From: Candidatus Electrothrix yaqonensis
GTDB taxonomy: Bacteria > Desulfobacterota > Desulfobulbia > Desulfobulbales > Desulfobulbaceae
Direction of reading: 5' to 3'
Assembly (NCBI GenBank): GCA_047651235.1
Contig: CP178758.1
Span: 2,730,001 to 2,762,000 of the forward strand
DNA length: 32,000 nt
Each line of letters opens with the position of its first letter. The stretch's first letter is position 1. Of the stretch, positions 8,149-24,942 are shown in pieces. Both the position numbers and the translations under genes were made by a program. The notes beneath the pieces are model-generated. The model worked only from the letters and a program-made list of their open reading frames with translations. It was not told where the DNA came from and made no database searches.

Positions 8149-9813
8149 TCATTTTTCTGCATCAAGGCTGTACGTAAGTTCTCTGACCCTATACTGTGGC
8201 GGTTCTCCGGTCAGTAAAAAGGTGATGGAGCCTGTGCTGGCAACGCGCCTGGACGGGGAATAGGTCAGCAGCACCTTGAAGCGCCCTGTGACAGCGACGT
8301 CTTTTCCTTTCAGGTCGGTTGTCACCAGAGTGATATCGTAATCAATGGACTGAACAGAGTTGAAGAGCCGGGTGTATTTTTTGCGCATTGCAGAAAACCG
8401 CGTACCGTTCTCCTGTGCATCGGGGGTAAAGAATGCGGCGAATTTCCGTATCTCCCTGCTTGTATAAGCAGTTGTATAGCGGGAGAAGAATCCTTGTAAA
8501 TCCTGTAAAGAGGGTGTGGACGGGACCGTTGTTTTTCGGGAGACGGCTTTGTCCTCATTATCTTCAATAACCTTCTTTTTCTGAATCTTTTTTCTCGTAG
8601 GCAGTATAACGGCCTTCCGATATTTGGCACCGGCAAAAGGCGATTTCCTTTCCTGCTCTTTGTCCGACTGAGCAGGGACAGATTGTATATTTTCTGTTTC
8701 TTTTTCCGGCCGGGGTTGTTTCTCGGCAGAAGCAGCATCGGTAGCTACGGGAGCTGGTTGCCGCTCATCATCCGCCGGACCAGCTGACGGGAGTTGAACA
8801 GCTTTCTCCTGCACATCGGCTGGTTCGGGTAATTCGGGTGATTCCTGTGGCAGGACATCATAGGACACCGTTGATGCAGAGGAACTGGAACTGTCTTGGT
8901 CTATTTTTTTATACGGCGTTTCCGGTTGCTGTCGGGGTGGTGCTGCTGCAACAAATAGGGGAAGCGGCTCGGCTGCTTTAGTCTGCGGTGTGAGTGCCAG
9001 CATATCTTCCTCCCATTTTTCGTGGGCTTGGGAAGAATGGGAGATTGTTTCCGGCTGTGCTGTGGTGTCGTGTTGTACAGTCTGCGGGGTCGGAGCGGCG
9101 GGTGGCTGTATCTGCTGTCCAGCAGGTTTGGCCGGAAGAACCGGAAGAGTTTCTTTATCCTTAGAGTTAGAGGACGGGGGAGAGAAACTGTCAGAATCAA
9201 GTCGACTGAGGTTGTTCAGCATTGCCTGTTTCTGATAGAAGAGAGAAACGGCAATGATGAGGACCAAAAACGCCCCTGCAAACAGAGAGGCCAGGTAGAT
9301 GTATCTGTTTTTTCCTTCTTTCTTTGCAGGTTGCCTTTTTTTTTTATGCCGCCAGACAGTCGGGCGGGCCGCTTTGTCACCCGCTGTTGCCGGACGATTC
9401 ATTATGCTTTGGTAGGCCCTGCTGATTTCAATAAATTTTGCTGTATTTTCTTTACCGGAGGTGTCAGGATGATATTTTATGCTGAGCTGACGGAATGCCT
9501 GCTTCACCTGCGCACGGTCTGCATCGGCATCAAGTCCGAGAATCTGATATTCTTTACTGACATTTTTCTGCGGCGCGAAAATACTCAATATCTGCTGCAG
9601 TTCCAGGGAAAGCAGATCAACAGAAAGATGATGACTGCGGCAGAACAGATCCAGCTCCCGAAGTTCCTGTTTGTTTTTCCGCGCTATTTTCCTCCGCAAG
9701 TCTGTGCAGACTTTGGTCATTGCGTCATCTTCCGCAATAAACAGAATCAGTTCCTCCGTGGAAGGACGGGAAGCTATCTTTACGATAAGATGTTGTTCGT
9801 CGGCCAGCATCAT
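8149..9813 (-). CDS. J-domain (DnaJ-like) membrane protein with a Pro/Gln-rich linker and an NTF2/SnoaL-like C-terminal domain
   Basis: 554 aa. J-domain YQILGLDADADRAQVKQAFRQLSIKYHPDTSG...ISRAYQSI (HPD present). One TM segment (YIYLASLFAGAFLVLIIAVSLFY). A long low-complexity P/Q/S/E region. The C-terminal LQGFFSRYTTAYTSREIRKFAAFFTPDA...VTGRFKVLL reads as an NTF2-like fold, which is inference. The start overlaps the upstream stop (ATGA-type, 9810-9813). Confidence 0.7.
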   Translation of the reverse strand: MMLADEQHLIVKIASRPSTEELILFIAEDDAMTKVCTDLRRKIARKNKQELRELDLFCRSHHLSVDLLSLELQQILSIFAPQKNVSKEYQILGLDADADRAQVKQAFRQLSIKYHPDTSGKENTAKFIEISRAYQSIMNRPATAGDKAARPTVWRHKKKRQPAKKEGKNRYIYLASLFAGAFLVLIIAVSLFYQKQAMLNNLSRLDSDSFSPPSSNSKDKETLPVLPAKPAGQQIQPPAAPTPQTVQHDTTAQPETISHSSQAHEKWEEDMLALTPQTKAAEPLPLFVAAAPPRQQPETPYKKIDQDSSSSSASTVSYDVLPQESPELPEPADVQEKAVQLPSAGPADDERQPAPVATDAASAEKQPRPEKETENIQSVPAQSDKEQERKSPFAGAKYRKAVILPTRKKIQKKKVIEDNEDKAVSRKTTVPSTPSLQDLQGFFSRYTTAYTSREIRKFAAFFTPDAQENGTRFSAMRKKYTRLFNSVQSIDYDITLVTTDLKGKDVAVTGRFKVLLTYSPSRRVASTGSITFLLTGEPPQYRVRELTYSLDAEK

Positions 9814-11042
9814 TGAAGACTATCCTGCACAGGAGGAGGAGCGGTTGTTTCCTGCAGAGAAAAGTTAGTGAGCCACAGGTCACCGCTGATGAGATTGTCA
9901 ATATTTCTGCTTGGACGGCGGCGCACCAGAACCATTACGCCCTGTCCGCATTCTTCAGGTACTGTAAAGGGAAGAGTGAACCGTGTCCAGTCCTGATCTG
10001 CCTGCACCATATCTGTATCAGAACGCAACTCGCAGTCCCTTCCGAGAACCTCGATGAACGGCTTCTGGTCTGTTGTCAAGGCATGGCTCCGCAGTTCACC
10101 GGAAAGAATGAAATGCCTGCCGGGCGGCAAGGGAATGATCTGCCTGACATGATAATAACTAATATTTTCTGCACCGTTGAAACGGATATGCATTGCTGAT
10201 GTCTCTCCTGCCTGCCCGGTGGAATCTGCCTCAACTTCCTCAATCTTCCAGATCCTCCAACCAAATCCTCCCCTGACAAGAGGGGGGGTAAATGTTCCGT
10301 TATACAGAAGATTACCGTCGGGCCACGGGAAGTATTCTTTCCAGGCGGCAGCCGCTGTATCAATCTGTTTTTCGTTGATCAGCAGACTTATATATCGAAC
10401 TATCTGCTGCTGGTCAAGATCTGCAGGGCGTATTCTGTCCCACAGAAAAGATGCTGTTTCGACTTTCTGTGAGAGTACAGCATGATGAAACAGAGGAAGA
10501 ATGTTCTCCTGCCCCATTCCGCGCAGCAAGTCTTCCGGGTCGGACCAGAGGGAAAACGAAAAATTGATGATTTTTTTTCTGGTTGCCCGGCTGGTCTGTT
10601 CCTGCTGCAGCAACCAAGCGATATCCGTTTTCAGGATATCCTGCCGCCCCAGAAGATAGGCCAGCATTGCCTTTTCCCAGCGCCAGCGGATGACGTCCTG
10701 CATCAGGTCATCAAGATATTCCAGTATCTCCGCAGCACGGTCGGCATTACCGCTGTCATTTTCCAGTTCAGCCAGAGCCAGCCAGGCCGGGATGTACAGC
10801 GGGTTGGCCAGCAGAGCTTTCTGCAGCCATTCTTTTCCTTCCTGCTGATCACCTGTCAGAATCGCCTGTTTACCGTACATGACCAGCAGACCGGGATCCC
10901 GCTGATATTTGCGTATAGTTTTATTCGCGGAAATATTGCTGCTGTACACAGTCTGTGCAACTGTGGCAATACGCACCTCAAGAAAAGTCAGGATAACAAG
11001 TCCTATAAAAAGGAGGATGCGCAGAAGATATCCGGGCAGCAT
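9810..11042 (-). CDS. TPR-repeat protein with an N-terminal membrane anchor and a C-terminal beta-sandwich (carbohydrate-binding-module-like) domain
   Basis: 410 aa. N-terminal hydrophobic segment LLRILLFIGLVILTFL. TPR-like helices (EGKEWLQKALLANPLYIPAWLALAELENDSGNADRAAEILEYL). The C-terminal 150 aa are rich in beta-strand pattern (FGWRIWKIEE...WTRFTLPFTVPEE...DLWLTNFSL). Confidence 0.6.
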   Translation of the reverse strand: MLPGYLLRILLFIGLVILTFLEVRIATVAQTVYSSNISANKTIRKYQRDPGLLVMYGKQAILTGDQQEGKEWLQKALLANPLYIPAWLALAELENDSGNADRAAEILEYLDDLMQDVIRWRWEKAMLAYLLGRQDILKTDIAWLLQQEQTSRATRKKIINFSFSLWSDPEDLLRGMGQENILPLFHHAVLSQKVETASFLWDRIRPADLDQQQIVRYISLLINEKQIDTAAAAWKEYFPWPDGNLLYNGTFTPPLVRGGFGWRIWKIEEVEADSTGQAGETSAMHIRFNGAENISYYHVRQIIPLPPGRHFILSGELRSHALTTDQKPFIEVLGRDCELRSDTDMVQADQDWTRFTLPFTVPEECGQGVMVLVRRRPSRNIDNLISGDLWLTNFSLQETTAPPPVQDSLQ

Positions 11043-11085: not shown

Positions 11086-13398
11086 TTATCCATCTCTTCG
11101 GGATTCACCGTAGTTGTAGTCATATTTGTAGGCGTAATAACTACTGTATTTGCTGTATGCGCCGTACCCCTTCTGCTGCCCTGTTTTGTTGATAAGGGCG
11201 CCGAGTATTTTGCCGTTGACATTCAGGACAGAACGTCGGAAATGTTTTACTCCATCCCGCGGCGTATCTCCCTCAACAGTGACCAGAATAAGGCCGTCAA
11301 CCATATTGGCCAGCACCAGAATTTCAGCAAATCCCTGGAAGGGCGGCGCATCAAGAATAATATGGCTGTAATGTTCGCTGACATTTTTCAGCAGCTCCCG
11401 CATCCTGTTGGATGCGATCAGTTCCGCCGGATTAGGGGGCAGAGGGCCGCTGGAGATATAATCCAGCCCTTTATAGTCTGTCTTCTGAATAACATCTTTC
11501 AGACTGCTGATGCCGCTGAGCACGCTGGAAAGCCCTTCTCCTTTCCGTTCCGCATCAAAAACATGATGGAGGCTCGGCTTTCTGAGATCAACATCAATGA
11601 TCAGGCATTTTTCCCCGGTTGACAGATAGGAGAGCACTGTATTGGTGGACAGAGAGCTCTTTCCGGCCCCGGCCAGGATGCTGGTGACCAGAATGGTTTT
11701 CGGCGGGTGTCCGGCAGCGGAGAGATCAATGGATGTAATGGCCGTGCGGACCGATTCGGCAACCGGAGAACGGGGATCAGTATATGATTTCAGGGCCATA
11801 TCCCTCCGTCTGTGTTCGCATTCCTTATCAAAGGGGATAAGGCCCAGCACCGGGATATGGAAGCGGCTGATCAATTCTTCCGGATTCTTGACCGTATCAT
11901 CAAGATATTCGACCAGGAATGCCACTCCGACACCGCTGAACAGGCCCAACAGCAGACCCAGCAGCAGGTCGCGGGCGACTCTGGGTTTTGAGGGATATAA
12001 CGGAACCCTGGCCCGATCTATAATATTGATATTGGTAACAGCGGCGCCGAGAGTAGCCTCGATTTCCTTTGCCCGCTGCAGCAGACTTTCATAAACGGTT
12101 TTATTGGTTTCTGTTTCCCGCAGCAGTATTTTGTACTGGGTAGCCCTGTCATTCAGCTCAATGGCGCGCTGTTTTTGCTCTTCCGCCTTGACCTCCAGAT
12201 ATTCCTGTTTTTTCAGCGCTGCTTCGTAATCATTTTTGATGGATTCAACAATAAATTGTTTTTCTTCCCGGATACGCTGTTTAATGTCATTTATCTTGGC
12301 CTGTAGCTGCCGCATCTTGGGATATGCGGGTTTGAATGTGGTGGACAGATCCTGGTATTCCGCTGTCAGCAGTGAATACTCACCTTTCAGTTGTTTAATC
12401 AGATCATCCTGAAGGATCTGCGGCAGATTCTGATTGTCTTTGCTGATGGCCTCCTGATACAGGGATTCCTTGCTGATACGTTCAGCACGGGCCTTGGCAA
12501 GGGCGTCATTCAGTTCCTCCAGCTGTCGCATGATCAGATTGAGTTTCGGGTCCAGAGAGACCAGACCGGCCTGACGGGAAAAATTATTGAGTTCTTTTTC
12601 CGACTGCTCAAGTTTTATCTGGGCAGCCTGTATCTGTTTTTCCAGAAATTGGGCAGCGTTTCTGGATGAGTCCATATTGGTATCCATGTGCATCTGGATA
12701 AACTCATCCATCGCTGTATTGACTAGTGCAGCAGACAGTTGTGCATCCGGGGATTCAAAGCTGAGTTCGATCAATTCGCTGTTGCGTATCGGGTTTATTT
12801 TCAACCCATCCTGCAGTTTTTCAACAATCTCTTCGGTAAGTAAACGTTTTTTTCCTTCCTCATGCAGAGTATTGTCCACTTCAGAGCTAAAACGGATAAA
12901 GTTGCGGATAGAGGCCAAGCCGAGCCGGACCAAGCCAGCAAAAGATGCGTCTTCTCCCTGACCTGCCTGTATTTCCTCATTAAAAAAAGGTTGGTTCTCC
13001 AAGTCAAGTTTTTTGATAAGACGTATTGAGAGCTGTTCACTTTCCAACAGATTCACCTGCGTCTGTTGGAATTCTATGGATTTGAGGGCGTCTATCTGGA
13101 GATCTTCAAAACTGGTCACCTTGCTCTGAGCAGCAGACGCTTTCAGAGTGCCCTTTCCTTCAAACAAAGGGGTACGGGTCAGGGTGAACATTGCTGTTGC
13201 AGAAAAGATGAAGAGGAGAGACGTGATGATAACCCATTTTCGACGGATAACGACATCAATATAGTCCCGCAGATGGATTTCTTCATCCTCCAGCCGGGCG
13301 ACTGTTTCCTGATAGTCAACCGAAGGCAGATTCCGGCTGTCAGAGGCGGAACCTACTATAATTTGCCGTTCCGTATCGTTCGGGCGCGGTTGGTCCAT
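11086..13398 (-). CDS. Polysaccharide co-polymerase / bacterial tyrosine autokinase (Wzc/EpsG/GumC-type BY-kinase)
   Basis: 770 aa. Wzz-like N-terminal domain with a TM segment (WVIITSLLFIFSATAMF). Long coiled-coil periplasmic region and a second TM. Kinase Walker A ILVTSILAGAGKSSLSTN, Walker A' IIDVDLRKP, Walker B IILDAPP. C-terminal Tyr cluster GYGAYSKYSSYYAYKYDYNYG. Confidence 0.9.
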   Translation of the reverse strand: MDQPRPNDTERQIIVGSASDSRNLPSVDYQETVARLEDEEIHLRDYIDVVIRRKWVIITSLLFIFSATAMFTLTRTPLFEGKGTLKASAAQSKVTSFEDLQIDALKSIEFQQTQVNLLESEQLSIRLIKKLDLENQPFFNEEIQAGQGEDASFAGLVRLGLASIRNFIRFSSEVDNTLHEEGKKRLLTEEIVEKLQDGLKINPIRNSELIELSFESPDAQLSAALVNTAMDEFIQMHMDTNMDSSRNAAQFLEKQIQAAQIKLEQSEKELNNFSRQAGLVSLDPKLNLIMRQLEELNDALAKARAERISKESLYQEAISKDNQNLPQILQDDLIKQLKGEYSLLTAEYQDLSTTFKPAYPKMRQLQAKINDIKQRIREEKQFIVESIKNDYEAALKKQEYLEVKAEEQKQRAIELNDRATQYKILLRETETNKTVYESLLQRAKEIEATLGAAVTNINIIDRARVPLYPSKPRVARDLLLGLLLGLFSGVGVAFLVEYLDDTVKNPEELISRFHIPVLGLIPFDKECEHRRRDMALKSYTDPRSPVAESVRTAITSIDLSAAGHPPKTILVTSILAGAGKSSLSTNTVLSYLSTGEKCLIIDVDLRKPSLHHVFDAERKGEGLSSVLSGISSLKDVIQKTDYKGLDYISSGPLPPNPAELIASNRMRELLKNVSEHYSHIILDAPPFQGFAEILVLANMVDGLILVTVEGDTPRDGVKHFRRSVLNVNGKILGALINKTGQQKGYGAYSKYSSYYAYKYDYNYGESRRDG

Positions 13399-13498: not shown

Positions 13499-14311
13499 CT
13501 ATAAGCGCGCCGGATGCGTATAACATACCGCTTTTACTGTTTCCGTACCAAGGATTTTGTTCAGTTGCCGGTATTCTTTTTTCCCCGGCGGCGGACGTCG
13601 GACTGCATCATGCGCATCTGAAGCGACAAAGTGAATGCAGTTGTGTCGGGCAAGCCAAAGGGCGGTTTCTGCGCTCTGCTGCCCGAATTTCCCTAACATG
13701 CTGCCTGCGTTGACCTGCAGCATGATGCCCTGTTCAACCAGTTCTTTCAGCAAATCGACGTTCTTCTTTAGGAAGGGATTACGCTCCGGGTGTGCCAGAA
13801 TAACATTGCACCCGGTATCTTTAAAGGCCAGCAGAACGTCTGTCAGGTTATCCCGAAAGTCCTGAAAAGGCGGTTCCAATAAATATAGCTGGAGCAGTAT
13901 AAACTGAATACAGGATCAGCTATCTGAAAGGCGTGAAGGCAAAACTTATGCCTCTTGTGGGCATATTCAAATTATGTTGCTCCAGCTATAACAGTTACTT
14001 TGTCCCAACGGCAGCAGCTCATTTCGGTTCAGTTCTTTCAGCAGATGCGGATGAAGAGAGATTTCCATGCCGGGATGCACGGAAAGAGGAATATTTTTCT
14101 GCTGCAGAACCTGCTGCAGTTCGTTCACCTGCTGCCGGATTTGCCGGACAGAAGCAGACCAGGCGGTTCCGAGAATATGGTGCGGAGTGGCGAAAACCTG
14201 GGTAACACCTCCGGCAACAAGGGCACGGGCCAGTGCCATGCTTTGGCCGATATTCTTCGGGCCGTCATCAATGCCGGGCAGAATATGACAGTGGATATCA
14301 ATAAAGGGCAT
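13499..14311 (-). pseudogene. CpsB/YwqE-type (PHP-family) protein-tyrosine phosphatase, interrupted by a 103-bp insertion
   Basis: The N-terminal fragment (ORF 13967..14329, likely ATG 14311) starts MPFIDIHCHILPGIDDGPK...ATPHH. The C-terminal fragment (ORF 13499..13879) reads ...NVILAHPERN...FVASDAH. Both fragments are in the same frame. Deleting 105 bp (element plus one TA) gives ...LPLGQSNCYLLEPPFQDF... and a protein of about 240 aa, normal for this family. As it stands a TGA at 13967-13969 terminates the N-terminal part. Confidence 0.8.
13886..13988. mobile_element. MITE-like 103-bp insertion with 11-bp perfect terminal inverted repeats and a TA target-site duplication
   Basis: Plus-strand reading: TA (13884-13885) | TAGCTGGAGCA (13886-13896) ... 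81 bp ... TGCTCCAGCTA (13978-13988) | TA (13989-13990). No coding capacity. Excision restores the phosphatase reading frame. TA duplication is the hallmark of IS630/Tc1-mariner-type elements (established knowledge). Confidence 0.65.
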
Positions 14312-14337: not shown

Positions 14338-15906
14338 TTACCTGCCGGAGGATGATGGGTGTCTTTTGTGCCTTTTGTGGAGGTCTGCGGAGTTCAGTTG
14401 CTGATCATCTCGTTTTCGGGTTACGGCAGGCCGGAGGCGTGAAGTATGACGATAATGATGACTCTGCTGAGGCTGAGGACGGGTGCCGTGAACAAGCAGA
14501 ACAAGCAATGTGGTGAAGTAGAGTAAATTTACCGGAAGACGCCAGCCGAAATCTGCTGTTCCGTGAAAAAGGAAGCCGATAATTCCGGCAAAAGCGACAA
14601 GAGCAATAATTGTGGCTGAACGAAGTTGAGGTAATTTTTTTGTTGAATAAGAGCAGAGATGTCGAGCATACCCGGCAAGAATTATAAAAAAACTGCAGAA
14701 AAAAAACAAGGCGGCCGGGAGTCCGAACTCAATGGCGAACTCCAGATAGTCATTATGTGCCCGATCAAAGATGATCTGTTCGGGAAATTGCTTCAGATAG
14801 ACAGAAGAAAGTGATTCATAGGCTCCGACTCCGATGCCGACCGCCAGATGATCGGAGAGCATGGTCAGGCTGGACAGCCAAATACGAAAACGTCCCTGCC
14901 CGGATTCCTGGATACGCATGAACCGCTCAACCACGGAGGAAAAATCGATAAAAGAACCGTACAGCACAACGAACAGCAGAAGAACTCCGGTCAGACGGAG
15001 TTTGTTTTTTTTGCTGACAGGCAGAGCGACCAGCAGCAGAAGCAGGATAATTGCCATGGAAATGATACCTCCTCTGGACTGGGAGAATACCACGGCCATC
15101 ATAATAAACGAGGCAAGGAAAAGAAAAACAGTTCCACGCAGTCGGCGACTTGCAATATATTCTTCTTCTGACCGGCTCCGCTTCCGTTTGCTTGTATGTT
15201 GTGATTTTTTACGATGTGATCGGGATTGCGAAGGCCGGATTCTGAAGTGCAGCAGGGCTGCTCCGACAGCAAGAGGCCAGCACATATTGAGCAGAGAAGC
15301 ATACTGATTTTTATAAATAATAGTTCCCCGGGCCATTCCTTTGAATTGTGTAATGTCCGTCAGCCATAACACGCCGAGTTCAGGGTTGATCGCCTGAAGC
15401 ATACCATACACTGCTTCCAGCAGACCGATTCCTATACAGGCATACAGGATTCTCTGCAGCAGGGAGCGGTCTGCTGCCAGCAGAACCTTGAGTGCAGTGC
15501 CATAAAGGAACAGAGCAAAGAGAAAAATTGCCGTCATGATCGCGGCGGAGCTGTTATATGCCAGAGGAGCCCGGACTATCTGCATCTCCGCCAGCTGATT
15601 GACATGCTGAAGGTAGGCAGCCCGTATAGGGGATATGGATTCTAGCAGACTGAGGGGCAGGGGAATGATGCTGCAGATAATCCAGGTGATCAGCACAAAC
15701 AGCACAATAGTCCGACGGGAAAATAGACTGTTTCCAGGCAGTACCCTGCTGTTGAGGAGCAGCCATCCGCCTATGATTATAAGGATAAACGACGTATATG
15801 CACCGATAACAACGGGATGCACTGCGCCGAAGAGCACAGGCATGGTTGTGAGCAGGAAAAGAACAGAAAAATGGGCTGTTTTTTGGAGTTTCAGACCGCG
15901 ATTCAC
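14338..15906 (-). CDS. O-antigen ligase/polymerase-like (Wzy_C family) polytopic membrane protein
   Basis: 522 aa with at least 10 hydrophobic helices. Family-typical QSRGGIISMAIILLLLL and AHNDYLEFAIEFGLP motifs. His/Arg-rich hydrophilic tail. The GTG start overlaps the Wza-like stop (15903-15906); a later start is possible. Confidence 0.7.
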   Translation of the reverse strand: MNRGLKLQKTAHFSVLFLLTTMPVLFGAVHPVVIGAYTSFILIIIGGWLLLNSRVLPGNSLFSRRTIVLFVLITWIICSIIPLPLSLLESISPIRAAYLQHVNQLAEMQIVRAPLAYNSSAAIMTAIFLFALFLYGTALKVLLAADRSLLQRILYACIGIGLLEAVYGMLQAINPELGVLWLTDITQFKGMARGTIIYKNQYASLLNMCWPLAVGAALLHFRIRPSQSRSHRKKSQHTSKRKRSRSEEEYIASRRLRGTVFLFLASFIMMAVVFSQSRGGIISMAIILLLLLVALPVSKKNKLRLTGVLLLFVVLYGSFIDFSSVVERFMRIQESGQGRFRIWLSSLTMLSDHLAVGIGVGAYESLSSVYLKQFPEQIIFDRAHNDYLEFAIEFGLPAALFFFCSFFIILAGYARHLCSYSTKKLPQLRSATIIALVAFAGIIGFLFHGTADFGWRLPVNLLYFTTLLVLLVHGTRPQPQQSHHYRHTSRLRPAVTRKRDDQQLNSADLHKRHKRHPSSSGR

Positions 15907-16949
15907 TTGCGTCTATCGACGGACGGATTGCGGTATTCGATCCCGGTTCCCATAAAACCAAGATTGAAGCCTAAACCGGTTGAAAGCAGGCCGGAACTGC
16001 TGGATTCAGCATACACGATATCCTGATCCTTCAGTTTGATGCTCTCTCCCAGTCCTTCCTGAAGATCATTGAAGCTGAGGCTGATTATTTTTCGCTTCCC
16101 GTCTCCTGTGTAACGGATCAGTTTGATTTTATCATTGTCAGCATAGGCTGTCAGGCCGCCAGCAAGGACAATGGCTTCTGTAATGGTCATTTCGCCTTTA
16201 ACAGGATATGTTCCTGGGGTTCTGACCGCTCCATCAACAAAGCATTTTCCTGCCTCCGGAATAAACAGAACGTCTCCTCCGGAGAGAGCAACATTGTAGT
16301 CCATATCACCGCGTTTGATTAATGAATCAAGATCAATGATATAATTTTTCTGCTTCCCGTTTTTTTTATCACGACGGGTCAGGTAGGCTATAGAAGCAGC
16401 GTCTTCGGTCACTCCCTGAGCAACGGCAATGACATCAAGCAGGCGTCGTCCGGCAACATAATCATAATTCCCCGGTTCATTAAAAGCACCGACAAGGGTG
16501 ATCCGGTCGCTTACTTTTTCTTTTATAAAGACAGAAACATGAGGATCCTGGAGATAGTTTTCCCGCAGCAGCTGCTCAATTTTTTCTTCCGCTTCAGCAG
16601 GTGTAAGGTTGAACACGTCCACCTGATCCAACATAGGGAGACTGATATATCCGCGTGAGCTGACGCGGGTTTCTGTGTTTAATTCTTCCGATTCAAGAAC
16701 ATTGACAGTAAGGAGATCTCCCGGTCCCAGCACGGATTCAGCTTCATCAGGCGGGAGTGTAAGCACTGAATCAAACATATCCTGCTGCACAGTTCTGTCT
16801 GCAAGCGGATCCTCCTGAATTTCCAGCTCGTTGAATTCTTCTATCTCTGTATTGCTTGTAAAACGTTCACTTGCACATCCGCTGAGAAACAGAGACAGCG
16901 TCAGGACGAACAGAAAAAAAAGGTGCGGTGAAAAATATTTTTTGTCCAT
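15903..16949 (-). CDS. Outer-membrane polysaccharide export lipoprotein (Wza-like; Poly_export + SLBB domains)
   Basis: ORF 15903..16997. The preferred ATG at 16949 gives the lipoprotein signal MDKKYFSPHLFFLFVLTLSLFLSGC. LGPGDLLTVNVLESEELNTETRVSSRGYISLPMLDQVDVFNLTPAEAEEKIEQLL matches the Poly_export pattern. Two SLBB-like repeats follow (GDVLFIP..., DQDIVYA...). Confidence 0.85.
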   Translation of the reverse strand: MDKKYFSPHLFFLFVLTLSLFLSGCASERFTSNTEIEEFNELEIQEDPLADRTVQQDMFDSVLTLPPDEAESVLGPGDLLTVNVLESEELNTETRVSSRGYISLPMLDQVDVFNLTPAEAEEKIEQLLRENYLQDPHVSVFIKEKVSDRITLVGAFNEPGNYDYVAGRRLLDVIAVAQGVTEDAASIAYLTRRDKKNGKQKNYIIDLDSLIKRGDMDYNVALSGGDVLFIPEAGKCFVDGAVRTPGTYPVKGEMTITEAIVLAGGLTAYADNDKIKLIRYTGDGKRKIISLSFNDLQEGLGESIKLKDQDIVYAESSSSGLLSTGLGFNLGFMGTGIEYRNPSVDRRK

Positions 16950-16994
16950 TTTTGTTCGGATAATCTGAAAAGGAGGTGTGCGGAAAAAGGATTG

Positions 16995-17035
16995 CATCAG
17001 GAGGAGAACCGGTATAAGAATGTTTCCTCCTGATG
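16995..17035 (-). terminator. 10-bp-stem hairpin between the FecR-like paralog and the Wza-like gene (terminator/attenuator candidate)
   Basis: CATCAGGAGG (16995-17004) pairs with CCTCCTGATG (17026-17035) across a 21-nt loop. On the minus strand it is followed by CAATCCTTTTTCC, so the T5 run starts 6 nt after the stem. Confidence 0.3.
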
Positions 17036-24463: not shown

Positions 24464-24669
24464 GTTCCCGTATTGGTTATTGGTGGCCTTTGTTCAGGGA
24501 TGACCGTCATCGTGGGCAGGGGCTGACGGATTGCAGCGATGAAATGACATCTGCTTTTGGTAGTGAGCTGCTGCAGCAGAAAAATTGTTGGGGGCTAACG
24601 CTGGAGTTAAGCCGCAGCGCGTAGCACCGCAGGAATCAAATGTTGGGCCGGTACGGTCAACTCGGCATT

Positions 24670-24702
24670 CCAAAGGCGTGGCCCGAAGGGGCGCGCCTTT
24701 GG
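24670..24702 (-). other. GC-rich nested hairpin capped by a UUCG loop (on the minus-strand RNA) in a 479-bp non-coding gap
   Basis: CCAAAGGCG (24670-24678) pairs with CGCCTTTGG (24694-24702). The minus-strand inner part reads CGCCCCUUCGGGCCA, with C(UUCG)G closing pairs. No adjacent T tract on either strand, so it is not a classical terminator. Confidence 0.35.
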
Positions 24703-24942
24703 AACCATTAGGTTATCAAAGAATCAGTCCTCATAGCTGCCGAAAACTGACATTCTCAGGAAAAATATCCGATGTGCTATTTATCAGTACATTTTCCCAG
24801 ATAACTTGAATTAGTTCCATCTTTAACGCATCTTTCAGATATGTCAAGAGAAATACAAGACGAATGAAATACAGAAATTTTTTCACCACCCGATCCAGCG
24901 CATCGATCAGGGCAAAGGGCGGATGGGCGGAGAAAAGCCCGG

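Follow-up and report, generated by a model that had tools for sequence, protein, structure and literature searches.

A 103-bp MITE-like element inserted at a TA dinucleotide in a CpsB/CapC-type tyrosine phosphatase gene in a Desulfobulbaceae bacterium close to the cable bacteria

Small TA-Flanked Elements in Bacteria

Bacterial MITEs are described as sequences of small size with inverted repeats and TA ends, which hold stop codons in all frames and whose transcripts form a long stem-loop (PMC2229807). An exact duplication of the dinucleotide TA is the hallmark of the IS630/Tc1-mariner family, as well as of the bacterial MITEs RUP, Correia, and ERIC (PMC2229807). The 103-bp element that interrupts a phosphatase gene in the 32-kb stretch of DNA analysed here (referred to as the window) matches this description in its size, its inverted repeats, its TA ends, its stops in all frames, and its long stem-loop transcript.

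RUP (repeat unit of pneumococcus) from Streptococcus pneumoniae is 107 bp long, and is thought to be mobilised by IS630-Spn1 (PMC2229807). Both RUP and the 103-bp element hold terminal inverted repeats, are inserted at TA, carry stops in the six frames, and lack any known internal motif. RUP is found in around 108 mostly intergenic copies and has a partner IS with similar ends, whereas the element described here is intragenic; moreover, the hosts belong to different phyla, that of the present element being a member of the Desulfobulbaceae.

The Correia elements of Neisseria, also known as NEMIS, exist in forms of approximately 107 bp and 155 bp. They share with the present element the TA duplication, the length of the short form (~107 bp), and a stable stem-loop transcript, and their terminal inverted repeats of 24–26 bp compare with the imperfect repeats of 25 nt found here. 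In both cases, the element has been defined by the alignment of a filled site with an empty one. However, the end sequences appear to be unrelated, and neither an IHF site nor an outward promoter was detected in the element of the phosphatase gene. ERIC/IRU and other enterobacterial MITEs, like this element, are small and imperfectly palindromic, and TA is found at their termini. They are transcribed together with their neighbours and can alter mRNA stability (PMC2229807). Nevertheless, ERIC elements are mostly intergenic and some of them are translatable, while the element described here lies in a coding sequence and stops its translation; the search of a plasmid collection returned no sequence matching it.

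Among autonomous elements, those of the IS630/Tc1-mariner family, exemplified by ISY100, duplicate a TA target and hold terminal inverted repeats of 20–30 bp (PMC2170065). A TA duplication and terminal inverted repeats are also present in the phosphatase gene, although the element that they bound has no transposase gene and is about one tenth as long. In its size, TA target, stops in all frames, and hairpin transcript, the element behaves like RUP or the short Correia form; as the searches revealed no sequence link to these families, it is placed in none of them.

Anatomy of the Element

Read along the plus strand, the element and its flanks follow the order TA (13884–85), TAGCTGGAGCA (13886–96), interior, TGCTCCAGCTA (13978–88), and TA (13989–90), in the context ...CCAATAAA-TA-TAGCTGGAGCA...TGCTCCAGCTA-TA-ACAGTT... 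(Table 1). A repeat search delimited two arms, 13884–13910 and 13964–13990, of 27 nt each, which are 85% complementary and separated by 53 nt, and a base-by-base comparison showed that the element ends pair at positions 1–11, 14–17, and 20–25. When the ends were written as a degenerate 27-nt pattern, they were the only matches in the window, and the pattern was found in none of 100 shuffles. The 11-mer alone, at a tolerance of one mismatch, is more easily matched by chance (at least two matches in 14 of 100 shuffles), and the significance is therefore derived from the extended arms and their position.

Table 1. Features of the interrupted phosphatase gene, the inserted element, and the adjacent genes (positions in the window).
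Feature	Position	Strand	Details
wzc-type BY-kinase gene, 770 aa, intact	11086–13398	-	Pfam GNVR + AAA_31; downstream of the phosphatase
Phosphatase C-terminal fragment	13499–13885	-	Residues 108–235 + stop; PF19567 118–231, E = 1.6e-22
TA, target-site duplication copy 1	13884–13885		Empty site of ortholog L004 holds a single TA
MITE-like element, 103 bp, non-coding	13886–13988		Absent from ortholog L004
Left terminal inverted repeat	13886–13910	+	Perfect over 11 nt (13886–13896), imperfect to 25 nt
Right terminal inverted repeat	13964–13988	-	Perfect over 11 nt (13978–13988), imperfect to 25 nt
TA, target-site duplication copy 2	13989–13990		Comparison with L004 and period-105 repeat
Phosphatase N-terminal fragment	13967–14311	-	PF19567 profile positions 1–103, E = 8e-23
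Wzy_C/O-antigen-ligase-like membrane protein and Wza-type Poly_export protein	14338–16997	-	Upstream, EPS locus

The 107 nt that comprise the element and both TA copies fold as single-stranded DNA with an energy of -20.2 kcal/mol (z -4.45), and the RNA in the sense of the operon folds with -39.4 kcal/mol (z -6.4), values that were equalled by 0 of 200 shuffles. The GC content of the element is 41.7%, compared to 51–53% in the surrounding gene and 50% in the window. All six frames contain stops, and the element therefore holds no ORF. With its 103 bp and its lack of coding capacity, the element resembles bacterial MITEs, which are smaller than about 300 bp. Its inverted repeats are situated at the exact boundaries of the 105-bp indel that distinguishes this locus from its ortholog, and TA is found on both sides of it, while the ortholog has a single TA. 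These features agree with the original prediction, made from the sequence alone, which had described a 103-bp element with 11-bp terminal inverted repeats, TA flanks, and no ORF. The direct repeat of period 105 at the junctions extends over 3 nt (ATA on the plus strand, at 13883–85 and 13988–90); the target duplication is TA under a symmetric reading, and a duplication of 3 bp is formally possible.

The left 38 nt of the element (13886–13923) also constitute an imperfect palindrome on a smaller scale, TAGCTG...CAGCTA, whose arms (13885–13900 and 13908–13923) are 75% complementary. The interior of the element therefore bears a degenerate version of the terminal repeat, the third in the element. 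Rfam matches at the element were below threshold and amounted to noise, and the window as a whole gave no Rfam family.

The Interrupted Gene

The insertion affects a minus-strand gene encoding a CpsB/CapC-type (PHP) tyrosine phosphatase, which belongs to an EPS locus with the composition wza, wzy-like, cpsB, and wzc. Due to its Wza, Wzy_C-type, and Wzc neighbours, the gene is identified as the phosphatase of an EPS/capsule tyrosine-kinase module, in which the Wzc kinase is presumed to be the substrate and partner of the phosphatase. Directly downstream of wzc, the minus strand holds two large ORFs (8149–11042), one of 410 aa without a Pfam or PADLOC match and another of 554 aa with a DnaJ domain only.

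Translation places both phosphatase fragments in one frame, to which the element adds three stops. The N-terminal fragment comprises residues 1–107, encoded by 13991–14311, and a 7-codon tail (YSWSNII) followed by a stop, which are encoded by the TA and the element. This 114-aa product is also called on two contigs from independent assemblies (L003 and L008, see below). The complete minus-strand translation reads MPFIDIHCHILPGIDDG...LPLGQSNC-YSWSNII-stop, includes two more stops, and ends with ...LLQL-YLLEPPFQDF...THPARL-stop. Deletion of the 105 bp between 13886 and 13990 restores ...GQSNC-YLLEPPFQDF... in a protein of 235 aa, which aligns to PF19567 (CpsB_CapC) in one stretch, from position 1 to 231 of 234 (E = 1e-50; 172.6 bits against a cut-off of 27). 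The alignment also shows that the invariant residues H7, H9, D15, D16, H44, E83, H87, H139, D197, and H199 are all present in the restored protein. Both the splitting of the gene into same-frame fragments and the fusion of GQSNC to YLLEPPFQDF by removal of 105 bp had been anticipated from the sequence, with a protein length put at about 240 aa. The two CpsB fragments should be annotated as one interrupted gene.

As for the effect on the protein, the first of the in-frame stops, 7 codons past Cys107, would cut off the metal motifs of the N-terminal portion (HxH, D, H44, E83, and H87) from those of the C-terminal one (H139, D197, and H199). With its metal ligands separated in this way, the phosphatase is almost certainly inactive, and the insertion explains the pseudogene state of this capsule/EPS regulator in its host. 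The transcript, for its part, is predicted to carry a stem-loop of -39 kcal/mol, which may have polar or stability effects on wzc. A weak terminator-like hairpin is found on the minus strand at 13965–13947, and 0 outward sigma-70-like promoters were predicted in the element.

The Empty Site and the Age of the Insertion

When the restored 235-aa protein was used as the query, 2,590 homologs were obtained at E <= 1e-10. Foremost among them is P0001, also of 235 aa, which is 91% identical with a query coverage of 100% and is encoded on L004, a JGI metagenome contig of 1,181 bp from sample 3300036936. This contig is syntenic with the locus, as the end of a Wzy-like gene precedes the phosphatase gene and the start of wzc (MDQPRPNDTERQIIVGSAS...) follows it, and its DNA identity is 90.5%. 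The sole large indel between both sequences comprises exactly 105 bp, which the ortholog lacks, with the inverted repeats and TA at its boundaries. At this point the ortholog reads AGCAACTGT-TA-TTTATTGGAGCC, which represents the empty site, and its junction, AACTGT-TA-TTTATTGG, contains a single TA.

Fourteen homologs with identities between 39% and 91% align without gaps across the junction and have no extra residues there, the family consensus being LLPLGxSNCYLLEPPFQ. These ungapped homologs, together with the empty site of the ortholog, demonstrate that the extra DNA is an insertion and not an ancestral segment. The original prediction had proposed ...AACTGTTATTTATTGG... as the empty site, a sequence that is matched exactly in the syntenic ortholog; it had also named homologous sequence at this position in intact orthologs as the finding that would speak against an insertion, and none of the 14 homologs holds any.

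Compared to the ortholog, the phosphatase gene shows dN = 0.046 and dS = 0.345 (dN/dS = 0.13), and no frameshift or stop is found in it besides the insertion. The low dN/dS indicates that the gene has been under purifying selection through nearly all of the divergence time and, together with the lack of any other lesion, argues for a recent insertion, as had been suggested from the precision of the junction. No intact allele of more than 91% identity was present among the returned homologs. This textbook-clean pair of filled and empty sites documents recent transposon activity in a poorly studied relative of the cable bacteria. The kind of event is well known, clean but ordinary; it involves no new mechanism and would be unsurprising to a specialist.

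Junctions in Independent Assemblies

Logan contigs (k = 31) from two SRA runs, SRR31704081 and SRR31704082, were compared with the window, and they exhibit 0 mismatches over 2.9–12.8 kb per contig. Two of them (L001 and L002) start at window position 13910, and comprise the flank plus 25 nt of the element; another two (L003 and L008) stop at position 13963, and comprise the flank plus 26 nt. The ends of the four flanking contigs, 25–26 nt into the element, thus coincide between the runs, whereas the other breaks in the window differ by run (17295 versus 16890, 24554 versus 24531, and 9675 in one run only). The interior of 52 nt (13911–13962) is present only in the window's own assembly, with the Logan contigs flanking it. 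Since both junctions are reproduced in independent assemblies of two runs, the assembly error that had initially been considered as a possible source of the feature is unlikely, the reproduced portion being that outside the interior.

The identical breaks in both runs are indirect evidence of a repeat or a polymorphism. No repeated k-mer of at least 14 nt is found in the element region of the window, and the branch in the assembly graph therefore originates from sequence elsewhere in the samples. This branching sequence must contain GTTA plus positions 1–26 of the element, and positions 79–103 plus TATTT. The usual reading, with which these data fit, is that further copies of the element exist with flanks that match 2–3 bases beyond the TA, and such sharing of flanks is estimated to be likely at a few tens of copies. 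A variant of the same locus with a different interior also fits. Both readings would imply that the element ends are present more than once in the sample. An element in multiple copies, if this is the case, would also explain the fragmentation of the short-read assemblies of the host.

Two other causes of the breaks were considered and rejected. An inverted interior predicts a break after position 25, where the contigs reach 26, and a collapse of inverted-repeat k-mers inside the window is at odds with the lack of a shared k-mer of at least 14 nt in the region. The 23.4-kb Logan contig that begins in the element terminates, at its far side (L009, 20290–20968), within an incomplete gene of 225 aa or more, and bears no terminal inverted repeat there.

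Searches for Further Copies and for a Partner

Scans with the 11-mer and with the degenerate end pattern found no second copy of the element in the 32-kb window, in line with what the original prediction had reported, and none was found in the ~9.5 kb by which the same Logan contig extends beyond the window start. The single-end pattern of the terminal inverted repeat, TAGCTGGAGCANNATAANNTGAATA, gave 0 matches in 185,579 GTDB species genomes and 0 in JGI metagenome contigs, and the paired pattern, with a gap of 66–96 nt, gave 0 matches in the GTDB species genomes and in IMG/VR. Three JGI matches to the paired pattern were discarded, two of them being long perfect palindromes and the third an apparent chance match, none of which is element-like. 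The blastn comparison of the element with plasmids and phages returned no meaningful match, and its terminal repeat sequence appears in the full text of the literature only in primers and barcodes. The only element frame with start codons was read as a 30-aa peptide, which had one match (P0249) among 1.84 billion representative proteins. This protein is not considered a relative, because it is a tandem-repeat junk ORF whose score is summed over nine weak repeats.

The element's own copy was likewise not returned by the scans of these collections. Either these collections lack the source genome or it is masked in them, and their negative results therefore say little about the copy number of the element in that genome. 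Neither the window nor the adjacent contigs hold a transposase gene.

Origin of the Element

The interruption of cpsB is very probably due to a MITE, or to another very short non-autonomous derivative of a DDE-type IS, that was inserted at TA and mobilised in trans. Through a cut-and-paste mechanism, the element would have been inserted into the TA inside the codon for Tyr108 of the phosphatase gene, with the duplication of this dinucleotide. As the element has no transposase, its mobilisation is expected to have been carried out in trans by another element with matching ends. This partner would most likely be of the IS630/Tc1-mariner type, since this family duplicates TA, the duplication being the one feature that points to this affiliation.

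It is this affiliation that is disputed by the proposal of another TA-duplicating family, such as IS5 (IS427 or ISL2 groups), or of a 3-bp ATA duplication. Some groups of the IS5 family also produce duplications of 2–3 bp, the direct repeat at the junction can be read as 3 nt (ATA), and neither an IS630-type partner nor a matching inverted repeat was obtained in the GTDB and JGI scans. However, the two ends of the element are equivalent only under a symmetric TA with perfectly symmetric inverted repeats, and an exact TA duplication is the hallmark of IS630/Tc1-mariner, RUP, Correia, and ERIC. Another family is hence unlikely, though it retains an appreciable chance, and it is compatible with a non-autonomous element mobilised in trans. 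The anatomy of inverted repeats plus TA duplication is also predicted if a full-length IS was inserted at TA and later lost its transposase by an internal deletion, leaving single-copy ends that never transposed as a MITE. The lack of a second copy in the searched collections, the 32-kb window, and the ~9.5-kb flank would be in keeping with such a remnant. Nevertheless, the four Logan contigs from two runs, with their coincident end positions, point to a graph branch and thus to ends that are shared in the sample; furthermore, the compact interior of 53 nt and the hairpin formed by the whole element are typical of established MITE families, which makes the remnant improbable.

The remaining two explanations question the insertion itself. 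A sequencing or assembly artefact at 13884–13990 could draw on the interior (13911–13962), present in the window's own assembly only, but it is very hard to reconcile with the recovery of both junctions, each free of mismatches and with 25–26 nt of the element, in k-mer assemblies made independently from two runs, or with boundaries that display the anatomy of a textbook transposon. The idea that the 35 extra codons represent ancestral or functional sequence lost in other lineages (for example, a linker specific to this lineage or a programmed split gene) takes its appeal from an insert length that is a multiple of three and from fragments that are in frame. It is effectively refuted by the three in-frame stops of the segment, by the homologs (0 of 14 hold a residue there, including the one with 91% identity), and by ends that consist of inverted repeats beside a duplicated TA.

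Beyond the MITE insertion as such, it may be speculated that the element is the first of an undescribed and still active MITE family confined to a lineage of Desulfobulbaceae near the cable bacteria, with tens of copies in the 3.74-Mb genome, and that the hit in cpsB is a recent knock-out of the phosphatase, perhaps an adaptive one, by which the Wzc kinase is reset. A family with tens of copies is consistent with graph branches that need copies sharing 2–3 bases beyond the TA, and this broader proposal is regarded as possible, though doubtful. If true, the resetting of Wzc would change the production of exopolysaccharide or sheath in the sampled population.

Host and Neighbouring Loci

The host belongs to the Desulfobulbaceae and is placed near the cable bacteria (Ca. 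Electrothrix). The partial UvrD at the window start (1–1478) shares 100% identity with a 727-aa protein (P0127) encoded on an NCBI contig of 3,738,687 bp, apparently a closed genome. Among named genomes, Desulfobulbus sp. N2 and several of Ca. Electrothrix come next, with an identity of only around 80%. Genes for type II secretion are clustered just past the window end.

A few genes downstream of wzc, the minus strand holds a Septu anti-phage system (4360–7751), composed of PtuA (643 aa, E = 9.5e-234) and PtuB (205 aa, E = 1e-65), which is adjoined by a type II N6/N4 DNA methyltransferase of 278 aa. Together, Septu and the methyltransferase give the impression of a small defence island next to the EPS locus.

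The Logan contigs of both runs also break in an intergenic region at 24531–24704, where a gap of ~125 nt (24555–24679) lies outside both flanking contigs of SRR31704081 and a GC-rich hairpin is found at 24668–24704. Within this region, a segment of 35 nt (24595–24629) exhibits 94% identity to the 3' half of a classical integron attC (59-be) site. The central palindrome of attC is not conserved in it, and Rfam gave no match. The match recurs on 1,745 enterobacterial plasmids, of which one record (NZ_CP022156) was inspected and has the attC site between gene cassettes adjacent to intI1; the segment in the window may represent a decayed or atypical attC-like repeat.
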